44,129 bases of DNA from Candidatus Shapirobacteria bacterium (GTDB lineage: Bacteria; Patescibacteriota; Microgenomatia; UBA12405). Under the pieces are notes generated by a model. The model had not been told where the DNA came from. It was given only the letters and a program-made list of their open reading frames with translations, and did no database searches. The stretch lies in NCBI GenBank assembly GCA_037142555.1, contig JBAXAJ010000006.1, positions 1-44,129 on the forward strand, in the 5' to 3' direction. This document shows positions 5,932 to 40,326 of the stretch, piece by piece; positions within the stretch are counted from its first letter, which is position 1, and every line of letters starts with the position of its first letter. The translations under genes were made by a program, and so were the position numbers.

Positions 5932-7074
5932 ATGAATAAACCACAAAAAATTGCTATCGTTCAAGATTATATTAAAGAATTTGGCGGAGCCGAATCAGTC
6001 CTTGAAACTCTATCAGAAATTTTCCCTGATGCCCCAATTTTCACCACTCTCTATAAACCTGAATTTTTAGGTCCACACCAAGATCGACTAGAAAAAAAAT
6101 GGTCAAATCGAATTCATCAAAGTTTTTTCCAATATATTCCTTTTGCCCACAAAATAATCAGCCCTCTTCGTCTTTTGTCACCACTAGCTTTTAAATCTTT
6201 CGATTTTTCTGCTTTTGATTTAATCATCATTTCCGCCACTGGTGCCTATTTCCCAAATTTAATCAACAAAGGCAAAGCAAAATTAATTTGTTATTGTCAC
6301 ACTCCACCTCGCTATCTCTATGGTCTTCCAACTGCCAGAAACTTCACTAAAAATAAAATTATTTATGCCATAATCCAAGTTTTGAATCACTTTCTAAGAA
6401 TTCTCGATTTTAAATCATCTCAAAATGTTGATCAATTCATTGCTAATTCTCAAACCACTGCCGCCCGTATTAAAAAATTCTATCGTCGTGATGCCATCAT
6501 CATCAATCCACCAGTCGATCTACCTGAAATTAGAAATTTGAAATTAGAAATTAAACCTTATTTCTTAACTGGTGGCCGTCTTGCTAGAGCCAAACGCTAT
6601 GATATTGCTATTCAAGCCTGTAACAAATTAGGTTTAAAACTTAAAATTTTTGGTCGTGATTTTGCCAATTATAGTCAAGAACTTAAAGATTTAGCTGGCT
6701 TGTCCGCCATAGCTTCAGCGAAGGCGGAGCCAACTATTGAATTCTTAGGTGAAGTTGATCAAAAACAAAAAGAAATTCTCTATTCTCAAGCCAAAGCTTT
6801 CATTTTTTGTTCAGATAATGAAGATTTTGGGATTGTTCCAGTTGAATCAATGGCCTATGGTTGCCCAGTCATCGCTTACAAGAGTGGAGGAGTCACTGAA
6901 ACAGTCGTCGAAGGCAAAACAGGCGTCTTTTTTGATGATTTAACCCCAGATTCTTGTGCCGCTGCAATCAAAAAATTTCAAAAATCAAAAATAAAATCAG
7001 AAGATTGCGTCTCTCGTGCCCAATATTTTTCCAAAGAAAAATTTATTTCTAAAATTAAAAAACTAATCTCTTAA
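5932..7074 (+). CDS. Glycosyltransferase family 4 (GT-B fold)
   Basis: GGAE, YCHTPPRYLY, EDFGIVPVESMAYGCPVIA motifs. Confidence 0.92.
   Translation: MNKPQKIAIVQDYIKEFGGAESVLETLSEIFPDAPIFTTLYKPEFLGPHQDRLEKKWSNRIHQSFFQYIPFAHKIISPLRLLSPLAFKSFDFSAFDLIIISATGAYFPNLINKGKAKLICYCHTPPRYLYGLPTARNFTKNKIIYAIIQVLNHFLRILDFKSSQNVDQFIANSQTTAARIKKFYRRDAIIINPPVDLPEIRNLKLEIKPYFLTGGRLARAKRYDIAIQACNKLGLKLKIFGRDFANYSQELKDLAGLSAIASAKAEPTIEFLGEVDQKQKEILYSQAKAFIFCSDNEDFGIVPVESMAYGCPVIAYKSGGVTETVVEGKTGVFFDDLTPDSCAAAIKKFQKSKIKSEDCVSRAQYFSKEKFISKIKKLIS
6526..6553. repeat. Tandem heptamer (GAAATTA/T) x4 inside the GT4 coding sequence
   Basis: gaaatta gaaattt gaaatta gaaatta, translated as EIRNLKLEI. Confidence 0.75.
6699..6728. 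repeat. 30-bp GC-rich palindromic mini-element inserted in frame
   Basis: cttgTCCGCCatagcttcagcgaaGGCGGA; removing it restores L-A-G-P-T; related copy at 32089-32119. Confidence 0.85.
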
Positions 7075-8968: not shown

Positions 8969-9004
8969 CTTGCTATTTATCCGCCCGTGGTGGAAAATAA
9001 CCAA

Positions 9005-31920: not shown

Positions 31921-31976
31921 AGTCAATTCATTTTATCAATAAAAATATTGAAATTACTCGAACAATACACGAAGTG

Positions 31977-32061
31977 CGGAGAGGGAGAGATTCGAACTCT
32001 CGGTGCCTTGCGACACACACGCTTTCCAAGCGTGCGCACTAGACCACTATGCGACCCCTCC
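31977..32061 (-). tRNA. tRNA-Ser(GGA), CCA not encoded
   Basis: GGAGGGG/CCTCTCC acceptor stem, CACGC-TTGGAAA-GCGTG, long variable arm, TTCGAAT. Confidence 0.96.
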
Positions 32062-32074
32062 TAATTTTCAAATT

Positions 32075-32137
32075 GCACTAGACCACTACTTGTCCGTCCG
32101 TAGCCTTGGCGAAGGAGGGTGCGACCCCTCCTAATTT
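32075..32137 (-). repeat. Duplicated tRNA-Ser 5' fragment interrupted by a 31-bp palindromic element
   Basis: 32075-32088 plus 32120-32137 equals 32036-32067; insert cttgtccgtccgtagccttggcgaaggaggg. Confidence 0.9.
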
Positions 32138-32153
32138 GTAGGCTTATTATATC

Positions 32154-32420: not shown

Positions 32421-32441
32421 TTATATTAATAAATTAATATG

Positions 32442-32487
32442 TCTCCCTTTCGTTAAGGGGAGATTCCGATTTATCGGGAGAGGGGTT
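32442..32487. repeat. Composite REP-like palindrome overlapping the NUDIX stop codon
   Basis: TCTCCCTT-tcgtt-AAGGGGAGA followed by TTCCGATTTATCGGGA and GAGGGG. Confidence 0.65.
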
Positions 32488-32977
32488 TGAGTTTATCCAA
32501 TTCTGCCTTTGCCTTCTTTAACAACAACTTTTCGCTATCAAAAGCCAATTTTCCCAGTGCTTCTTCAAAACTAAACCAACTTCTTTCCAACACCATCTCT
32601 GTATCATAATATTTCAAATTGCTTTGTTCAACATATTCCATCAAAAAGAAAGTCACTTTTTTAATGATTTTTCGTCTTTGTTCCTTATCCCAAATTATAT
32701 AATCATTTGAACCTAACTTAGTCACCACTCTAGCTTTAACTCGACCTTCTTCTTCCACTTCTCTAAGTGCTGCTTCTTTCAAAAACTCTCTTTCTTTCAA
32801 ATGGCCCTTTGGAAATTTAAAAATTGAACCGTTATCTTCTCTTCTTTTATTTTTTTGGCTACTAAAATTAGAAATAGTTCTAATCATCAACCAAAAAATC
32901 TTGTTATTCTCAATTTTGTAGACCAATCCACCCGCCGATCTCTCATCATACAATTTTTCTTCAGCTTTAATAACCAT
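32471..32977 (-). CDS. NUDIX hydrolase (Ap4A hydrolase-like)
   Basis: SAGGLVY, FPKGHLKEREFLKEAALREVEEEG. Confidence 0.9.
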   Translation of the reverse strand: MVIKAEEKLYDERSAGGLVYKIENNKIFWLMIRTISNFSSQKNKRREDNGSIFKFPKGHLKEREFLKEAALREVEEEGRVKARVVTKLGSNDYIIWDKEQRRKIIKKVTFFLMEYVEQSNLKYYDTEMVLERSWFSFEEALGKLAFDSEKLLLKKAKAELDKLKPLSR

Positions 32978-39879: not shown

Positions 39880-40140
39880 TTACTTCATTTCAAAATATCT
39901 TTCAAGCATCTTGTGAATACTTTTAAAACCCCAACCTGATTTTAAATAAACTTCTCTTCTTTTAGCATCAATTCTGTTTAAAAAAGCTTCGTAATGGATT
40001 AATTCATAGGGGATAAATGGTTTAGTAGCTTTATTTAACCCTTTATTATGTCTATCAAACCTTTTTCTTAAGTCTGAACTATAACCAATGTACAAACTAT
40101 TATTTTTTAAACTCTTAAGTACATAAGTGTAATAAAACAT
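39880..40140 (-). CDS. Small stand-alone GIY-YIG endonuclease
   Basis: YTYVLKS...LYIGYSSDLRKRF..HN.G...A..RE..LKSG. Confidence 0.92.
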   Translation of the reverse strand: MFYYTYVLKSLKNNSLYIGYSSDLRKRFDRHNKGLNKATKPFIPYELIHYEAFLNRIDAKRREVYLKSGWGFKSIHKMLERYFEMK

Positions 40141-40170
40141 ACTTAATTATAATATAAAAATGGAATTTGA

Positions 40171-40243
40171 GCGGGACGTATAATTTGCTTCGCAAATTGA
40201 CGTTCCAGCAACGTTTAAATCACTTTGTGATTTATTACGTTGC
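40171..40243. repeat. Two abutting long hairpins between the tRNA 3' end and the GIY-YIG gene
   Basis: GGGACGT-at-AATTTGC-ttc-GCAAATT-g-ACGTTCC and GCAACGT-t-TAAATCAC-ttt-GTGATTTA-tt-ACGTTGC. Confidence 0.8.
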
Positions 40244-40326
40244 GGTAGGAGAGGGAATTGAACCCCCATGCCCTTGCGAGCGTCCCATTTCGAATGGGGT
40301 GCCTTACCAATTCGGCGCATCCTACC
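40243..40326 (-). tRNA. tRNA-Ser(CGA), CCA not encoded
   Basis: GGTAGGA/TCCTACC acceptor stem, loop TTCGAAA, long variable arm, TTCAATT. Confidence 0.93.

Follow-up and report, generated by a model that had tools for sequence, protein, structure and literature searches.

The stretch of DNA analysed here, referred to throughout as the window, covers positions 1 to 44,129 (forward strand) of contig JBAXAJ010000006.1 from a Candidatus Shapirobacteria bacterium. It encodes a GT4-family glycosyltransferase (GT) whose reading frame carries a G+C-rich hairpin of 30 nucleotides (nt). This hairpin, the family of repeats to which it belongs and the way in which such repeats may spread are the subject of this report. 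The two features in question are:

5932..7074, plus strand: gene for the GT4-family glycosyltransferase, 380 aa, the host of the insert (Pfam PF00534 and PF13439; relatives by sequence in the PDB, e.g. 2f9f_A).
6699..6728 (match to the family model at 6697-6730), plus strand: hairpin element, sense and in frame within the GT gene, with the motif strand being the C-rich strand.

The element at window 6699-6728, CTTGTCCGCCATAGCTTCAGCGAAGGCGGA, is translated in frame as LSAIASAKAE (10 codons) within the open reading frame (ORF) 5932..7074. Its G+C content is 65%, versus 29-35% for the window, and as single-stranded DNA it folds with -9.8 kcal/mol (z = -2.6), a value that 3 of 200 shuffled sequences matched or bettered. 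The host protein matched Glycos_transf_1 (PF00534, C-terminal, 104.7 bits) and Glyco_transf_4 (PF13439, N-terminal, 37.6 bits), which assigns it to GT4. When 19 orthologues from related genomes were aligned, the element corresponded to an exact gap of 30 nt (10 codons), the empty form reading GG[C/T]|CC[A/T]AC[T/C], and the alignment revealed no target-site duplication at the insert. An in-frame 30-bp insertion adding 10 residues, free of target-site duplication, was what the first-pass annotation of the window had proposed, and the clean orthologue indel confirmed it. The insertion lies in the C-terminal, Rossmann-like half of the enzyme, between KIFGRDF..ELKDLAG and PTIEFLG. The additional residues probably join a helix of the C-terminal domain to a strand; the general features of the GT-B fold and the alignment to 2f9f_A suggest that they would form a surface loop. 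The filled allele was present in contigs of two of the four lake-water runs examined, one of them the probable source run, and the contig from the other was identical over 6599-7049.

The insert is one member of a family. Copies were collected by blastn-short together with a regular expression for the exact core, which yielded about 20 related copies in the source genome (G000, 777 kb), and then by a covariance model built from an alignment of 18 copies. Omitted from this alignment were C1:107070 (5/7 stem pairs, AT-rich stem), the second C5 copy (a duplicate of the first), the C9:7470 copy (long loop) and the other regular-expression cores with 4 stem pairs or fewer, except C7:34861, which was retained. 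The aligned copies describe a two-tier hairpin of about 34 nt, consisting of YTTG, a G+C stem of 6-7 nt, GTAGC-YTY-RGCGAA and the complementary stem; inside the outer stem there is an internal loop, GTA/GAA, followed by an inner stem of 3 bp. Pairing amounted to 91.4%, 8 of the 9 pairs showed changes in both partners and none of 500 shuffles did as well, although the figures for the outer helix are inflated because the copies had been picked in part for their outer stem. Sliding the structure by 1-3 columns lowered the pairing to 25-58%. The inner pair, which had not been a selection criterion, was intact in every copy, as U-A in 13 and as C-G in 5. A 29-nt IUPAC pattern proved too rigid, matching only the copy at 32090, since the 5' stem of the GT copy is shorter by 1 nt.

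The covariance model gave the GT copy 41.1 bits (E 1.3e-9). The first-pass annotation had also pointed to a related 31-bp copy at 32089-32119, which turned out to be genuine (40.3 bits) in spite of its weak fold (-4.1 kcal/mol, z = -0.2), and to a minimal stem at 8980-8994. The latter is present and folds weakly (-3.8 kcal/mol), but it went undetected by the family model even at E <= 10 with the filters off and was rejected as a family member. The next best match in the window after the two copies scored 11.5 bits with the filters off. The whole of G000 contained 25 matches at E <= 1e-3 and 35 at E <= 1, which bears out the expectation of further copies genome-wide. Across a set of 38 genomes of the genus, G000 included, the number of copies per genome ranged from 0 to 40, with at least one in 31; the copy-free genomes of at least 94% completeness were G012, G041, G004, G017 and G001. 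In the wider order, matches at E <= 1e-5 were found in 77 of the 121 genomes sampled, representing 29 of 44 genera.

The GT site could be read in 30 of the 38 genomes and in one outgroup, being unreadable in G003, G004, G009, G012, G016, G019, G044 and G049. Most orthologues lacked the peptide, as the first-pass annotation had anticipated: the site was empty in 23 of the 30 genomes and in the outgroup, and filled in 7 by two variants of the one family. Type 1 was carried by G000 and G005, which share an identical 31 nt. Type 2, inserted at the same nucleotide in G020, G022, G024, G048 and G051, has the form C[C/T]TCGTCCGCCAAAG..GCG.CGGCGGAG and reads SSAK.FA.AESN; the family model matched these inserts with 15.1-29.7 bits, oriented like type 1, and gave no match to the two empty alleles tested. 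On a maximum-likelihood tree of the GT gene, built after removal of the columns of the insert and of a second hot spot described below, the filled genes were scattered and 6 state changes were needed. In approximately unbiased (AU) tests, a single clade was rejected for the five type-2 carriers (p = 1.9e-7) and for all seven carriers (p = 1.85e-5), and was not rejected for the two type-1 carriers (p = 0.16). The inserts were much more alike than the genes around them, with identities of 31/31 versus 835/1091 for the G000/G005 pair (P = 2.5e-4) and 35/36 versus 851/1131 for G022/G048. Type-2 inserts were always accompanied by changes in the flanking codons (GGY to GCY and CCWACY to TCCAAY), and beyond about 5 nt the flanks of the site tracked the clade of each host. 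Empty sites retained the ancestral Gly-Pro-Thr codons, GG[Y]-CC[W]-AC[Y], with synonymous differences typical of each lineage, and for this reason they are not excision scars. From these sequence comparisons we concluded that the GT site was filled several times, either independently or through the transfer of very short patches.

The same gene presents further variation upstream of the insert. The linker following INPPVD (window ~6510-6560) is a second insertion hot spot, as seen in the orthologues L004, L006, L009, L011, L017 and L132, and relatives harbour other G+C-rich inserts there, from two or more additional families. In G048 this hot spot contains a second hairpin of the present family, on either side of which stands a diverged copy of the INPPV[E/D] segment of the host. 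An AT-rich part of the GT gene, window 6526-6567 (gaaattagaaatttgaaattagaaatt, read PEIRNLKLEIK), had matches of 83-100% identity at dozens of places in G000 and its relatives, and appears from these matches to be a second dispersed repeat lying in the variable linker. A different hairpin family (TCTCCC..GGGAGA followed by TCCGATTTATCGGGA) occurs at window 32437-32495, with a further copy at C7:11868-11901 and relatives in the GT hot spot of other genomes.

The copies of the family have a nearly uniform orientation. The motif strand was the C-rich strand in 31 of 33 copies in G000, in 30 of 32 in G046 and in 27 of the 28 best loci of other genomes; the two exceptions in G000 were a copy beside an IS200-like tnpA gene and a copy with a long loop. 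In G076, a relative assembled as a single contig of 998 kb, all 14 copies lay on the plus strand, from 121 kb to 993 kb, and this strand was C-rich at all 20 points sampled every 50 kb; in G043, 6/6 copies were on one strand. GC skew had a single sign along every large contig of G000, and, because genes of both directions on one contig shared that sign, the skew is a property of the strand and not of gene direction. A chromosome-wide GC skew of one sign has been published for Microgenomates, with one-way replication proposed as a hypothesis, in the available text of Kadnikov et al. (2020, PMC7143001), and the skew in G000 and G076 fits the strand disparity reported there. The C-rich strand of G000 carries dnaA, rpoB, the L16 operon and 65% of the long ORFs, and dnaA is on the strand of the hairpins in G076 and G043 as well. 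We take the C-rich strand to be the leading strand, with moderate confidence only; if so, synthesis of the lagging strand would use the motif strand as its template. The polarity is indicative of a biology of single-stranded DNA, from which a mechanism of spread may be proposed. A word search of the available text of PMC11893778 and PMC3733652, the two papers on related repeats discussed below, returned no mention of lagging or leading strands.

The first-pass annotation had asked for copies to be counted inside and outside coding sequences, together with their frame preference. With any spanning ORF of at least 120 aa taken as a proxy for a gene, 16 of the 33 copies in G000 (two of them doubtful) and 23 of the 32 in G046 were located within ORFs. 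One frame per orientation accounted for 28 of these 39 copies (p = 0.009 against two open frames), namely RTA-GCY-TYR-GCG-AAG in the sense direction and GCT-GAA/AAA-GCT-ACG, giving ..A-[E/K]-A-[T/M]-A.., in the antisense direction. The favoured frame is Ala-rich, and the third is closed by a stop codon whichever way the copy points. Only 8 of the 39 copies were in sense orientation, including 4 of the 16 in G000, and the other 31 were antisense; the deficit in G000 was significant (p = 0.0015), given that a copy would read as sense in 253 of its 392 long ORFs. This under-representation suggests that transcription matters too. A second clean 30-nt pair of filled and empty sites was found at G046:C8:18351, compared with C13 of G000. 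The proposal of an ultra-short palindrome family adding peptide loops to proteins thus drew support from the scattered GT site, the 0-40 copies per genome, this second pair and the copies inside ORFs.

A gene of G046 contains a hairpin at C16:13557-13590, and at the corresponding place G000 (C8:31020-31537) has an equally long, AT-rich sequence, which agrees with the hairpin on the YTTG side and at scattered positions and looks like a decayed insert turned ordinary coding sequence. An extra 3.3 kb at C1:81065, near a hairpin site, was considered as a mobile insert and not retained as such; it reflects the variable C-terminal tail of a KH-domain gene and different downstream genes.

Many of the intergenic copies adjoin tRNA genes, beside duplicated pieces of the tRNA. 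The second copy in the window is one of them:

31976..32061, minus strand: intact tRNA-Ser(GGA), detected by ARAGORN; its first 26 nt and the 6 nt upstream are duplicated just upstream.
32075..32088, minus strand: duplicate of tRNA nt 13-26, 14/14 identical to 32036-32049, abutting the hairpin.
32089..32119, plus strand: 31-nt copy of the family, the second in the window, whose 5' stem strand contains a single bulged base; located within the duplicated 5' piece of tRNA-Ser(GGA).
32120..32137, minus strand: duplicate of tRNA nt 1-12 and 6 upstream nt, 18/18 identical to 32050-32067, abutting the other side of the hairpin.

In this region (window 32062-32140), which is devoid of a nuclease gene, the hairpin is placed between nt 12 and 13 of the tRNA-Ser(GGA) repeat. 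The same layout, a hairpin within a duplicated tRNA piece, recurs at tRNA-Ala(UGC) and tRNA-Glu(UUC). At tRNA-Ser(UGA) (G000 C9:7470-7614) there is a family hairpin at both ends, each sharing a stem strand with the acceptor stem. One stem strand of each of these two hairpins is the tRNA's own acceptor end, GGAGGG on the 5' side and TCCGCC on the 3' side, and a 6-nt copy of the end lies beyond each hairpin.

This last tRNA gene is followed by a gene (C9:7184-7429) for an 82-residue protein with a main Pfam match to the GIY-YIG nuclease domain (PF01541) and a weak match to T5orf172 (PF10544) on the same stretch; NCBIfam returned only a weak UvrC-like match for it, and a sequence search of the PDB no relative. 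We surveyed 30 loci of the genus encoding homologues of the C9 protein. A hairpin match was located 60-130 nt upstream of the gene at all 10 loci with at least 53% identity to the C9 protein, the query's own included (seven matches at E <= 0.004 and three at E 0.14-0.16), versus 5 of the 20 loci below 53%. All 9 genomes with a nuclease gene at or above this level of identity had at least 5 copies of the hairpin, and the 7 copy-free genomes were all without such a gene; the median number of copies was 10 where the clade was present and 2 where it was absent (Mann-Whitney p = 0.003, a value overstated since related genomes are not independent). By comparison of sequences, the hairpin and the 82-aa GIY-YIG gene would constitute a nuclease-plus-hairpin pair of the kind described for the Ssn nucleases and their Ssn-related motifs (SRM). 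G000 has four mini GIY-YIG genes in total, each with a different hairpin. That of the gene at C9:153 has the stem TCCCGC..GCGGGA, which is the core of the palindrome of NTS, the hairpin repeat associated with the nuclease SsnA. Another of these genes lies in the window:

39880..40140, minus strand: mini GIY-YIG gene, 86 aa, with 47% identity to the hairpin-linked clade (a paralogue), just downstream of tRNA-Ser(CGA) at 40242-40326.

Between tRNA-Ser(CGA) and the 86-aa gene (39880-40326) there is a two-tier hairpin, GGAACGT..GCGAAGC..ACGTCCC, present as a single copy in the genome.

Taken together, we consider it reasonably probable that the GT insert is a solo copy of an oriented hairpin repeat tied to a clade of GIY-YIG nucleases, gained repeatedly and in a strand-dependent manner. 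Under this interpretation the 30 nt would be a gene-less ('solo') copy of a dispersed DNA hairpin repeat, and the hairpin would be the cognate single-stranded-DNA site of the 82-residue single-domain nuclease, as the NTS/SRM hairpins are for SsnA. Copies would be gained at novel sites, and more than once at a given site, free of target-site duplication; those landing in genes would survive if read in a stop-free frame, mostly the one rich in Ala, Ser, Lys and Glu. Whether they are gained or retained would depend on the strand that becomes single-stranded during replication, since nearly all copies point one way relative to a chromosome-wide asymmetry, and the spread itself may proceed via single-stranded DNA. 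The mobile palindromes envisaged by the first-pass annotation are retained here as a family, with some modification: they are strand-polar and accompany the mini GIY-YIG clade rather than being free-standing, and some coding copies are not clean inserts. A bolder version, which we put forward only tentatively, holds that the hairpins would be polar single-stranded-DNA sites copied by the miniature nuclease via a replication-coupled, transposase-free route, re-entering identical codons in separate species and then decaying into coding sequence.

Several observations weigh against this interpretation. Clean 30-nt indels were limited to two pairs among the filled-versus-empty comparisons, many others having no orthologous site or being untidily aligned. 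In the gene for pyruvate, phosphate dikinase (PPDK), site 1 shows a net gain of 5 codons instead of a clean 30-nt insert, with hairpin variants in 5 of the 22 genes read, and site 2 a net gain of 1 codon in G000 and G006 and of 4 in two other genomes; further coding copies correspond to a same-length replacement (L054), a 60-nt indel and indels of 16-24 nt. As regards the nuclease, three of the ten upstream matches are weak (~14 bits), and hairpins are kept in genomes where no close homologue was found, namely G006 (10 copies), G051 (11), G048 (15) and G010 (18), the best homologue in G010 containing a stop. The family consensus does not conform to the NTS/SRM consensus (CGTC tag, ATTCCCGC..GCGGGAAT), and that the nuclease binds or cuts the family hairpin would follow from the analogy with SsnA, the strand polarity being no more than consistent with a strand-specific activity of this kind. 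None of the contigs from the four lake-water runs joins across the element, although contigs drop rare variants and are blind to rare empty alleles. To these points must be added the inflated outer-helix figures, the moderate confidence as to which strand templates lagging synthesis, and a hairpin beside a transposase gene, considered below.

Of the alternatives, the one that best survives involves no transposition: the patches would spread only as alleles, through short homologous recombination between relatives or ectopic gene conversion, and the link to the nuclease would be incidental or would operate only through the cutting of incoming DNA. Near-identical inserts do fill the same site on unrelated branches of the gene tree, type-2 inserts come with constant changes in the flanking codons, several copies in coding sequence take the form of replaced patches and not of clean insertions, and SsnA acts on transforming single-stranded DNA in Neisseria according to the available text of PMC11893778. 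Recombination leaves unexplained, however, the first arrival at new, unrelated sites, which include tRNA gene ends and at least 16 different ORFs in genomes with 0-40 copies each, and it would require conversion tracts of only about 40 nt, as flanks past about 5 nt follow the host clade. Short-patch recombination is thus possible for the recurrences at a same site but cannot account for the new ones, and as a complete explanation we regard it as unlikely.

A second alternative considers the hairpins REP-like (repetitive extragenic palindromes) or derived from IS200/IS605 elements, moved by a Y1 (HUH) transposase and not partners of GIY-YIG proteins. The only IS200-like tnpA of G000 (C17:170-532, minus strand, 93 bits) has a family-like hairpin about 85 nt past its stop codon, at C17:53-86 (ACCCCGGGT-GTAGCTTTAGCGGA-ACCCGGGG, 33.9 bits), and strand polarity is typical of single-strand transposition. 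The loop also contains GTAG, the tag of REPs linked to RAYT transposases in the available text of PMC3733652. Yet in the present family GTAG occupies the internal loop that separates the outer stem from the inner one, YTTG being the terminal tag, and the C17 copy runs counter to the polarity, as only one other copy in G000 does. Hairpins occur in 31 of the 38 genomes, whereas a search for Y1_Tnp found it in no more than 3, in one of these with a stop codon; G046, G005 and G010, all rich in copies, are without it, and the other two tnpA loci had no family match at E <= 1, leaving one matched locus of three. Movement by a Y1 enzyme accordingly seems to us improbable, more so than recombination.

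There is still less to recommend a functional RNA element, such as a loop-E-like protein-binding motif, a processing site or a terminator, maintained by selection at the RNA level. The stems co-vary around a conserved GUA/GAA internal loop and many copies flank tRNA genes, but 31 of the 39 coding copies are antisense to the mRNA, orientation tracks the chromosome strand rather than gene or tRNA direction, and Rfam returned no family match (best E = 2.1, 16.5 bits against a gathering score of 55); we judge this possibility very improbable. Finally, an ancestral insert precisely lost many times, which the counts of changes on the tree do not distinguish from repeated gain, is scarcely credible in view of the empty form in the outgroup and in both main clades, of inserts far more alike than their host genes, and of a deletion having no means to regenerate ancestral Gly-Pro-Thr codons with lineage-typical synonymous differences.

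The family described here gives three measurable handles on how repeats of this kind multiply: near-total polarity under a one-signed skew, repeated entry at the same nucleotide of a conserved gene, and a gradient from clean 30-nt inserts to decayed, same-length AT-rich remnants. Two hypotheses become testable in this manner, that such elements spread through single-stranded DNA at the replication fork and that they seed new protein loops. If the replication-coupled nuclease reading were true, the nuclease would in effect be generating new loops in the proteins of ultra-small bacteria. For annotation, the family explains many short G+C-rich indels in proteins of the candidate phyla radiation (CPR) and at tRNA genes.

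The closest known counterparts are hairpin repeats paired with small single-strand nucleases, first described in 2025 to go by the available text of Chenal et al. (PMC11893778). There, SsnA is a 94-aa GIY-YIG enzyme that cuts only single-stranded DNA, and only one strand of the ~30-nt NTS hairpin; NTS copies flank ssnA genes, and 2% of NTS lie inside genes in N. meningitidis 8013. The same text likens the hairpin-gene-hairpin arrangement to an insertion sequence and lists Rickettsia among the SRM-rich genera. Like the Ssn-related motifs (NTS/dRS3, SRM), the present family consists of dispersed, oriented hairpins some 30 nt long that bear a conserved, non-palindromic tag on the 5' side, and it adjoins a single-domain GIY-YIG gene (82 aa here, ~90 aa there). 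It differs in having a YTTG tag, a two-tier hairpin and a GTAGC/GCGAA loop, as opposed to a CGTC tag and a ATTCCCGC..GCGGGAAT palindrome; in numbering tens of copies instead of hundreds; in having 45-70% of its copies within ORFs, where the figure for NTS in N. meningitidis 8013 is 2%; and in the many copies embedded at the ends of tRNA genes together with duplicated pieces of the tRNA, as well as in the chromosome-wide polar orientation.

Rickettsia palindromic elements (RPEs) measure about 100-150 bp, and to our knowledge no partner enzyme has been established for them. They are in-frame palindromic insertions in genes that remain functional, as cited in the available text of Di Nocera et al. 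(2013, PMC3733652). The GT insert resembles them in being an in-frame palindromic insertion that adds a peptide segment, but at 30-34 nt it is several times shorter and falls outside their length range. The same paper, in its available text, describes GTAG- and CGTC-tagged REPs, palindromes of 20-40 bp that include translated ones wholly inside ORFs, and different REPs at about the same site of Xanthomonas recB. The present family is likewise palindromic, with some copies in ORFs, and the same-site REPs of recB recall the GT site. In contrast to REPs, GTAG is internal to the hairpin instead of a GTAG or CGTC tag standing at its end, the partner is a GIY-YIG nuclease and not a RAYT, no Y1 gene flanked by repeats characterizes the family, the share of copies in ORFs is much higher, and the hosts are Patescibacteria (CPR). 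Translated REPs in ORFs, same-site REPs in recB, RPEs (available text of PMC3733652) and Ssn/SRM pairs (that of PMC11893778) are hence already in print; what is new is the occurrence in a CPR lineage of a distinct family of two-tier hairpins, the link between this family and a single clade of nucleases, its repeated entry at one codon and its near-total strand polarity.

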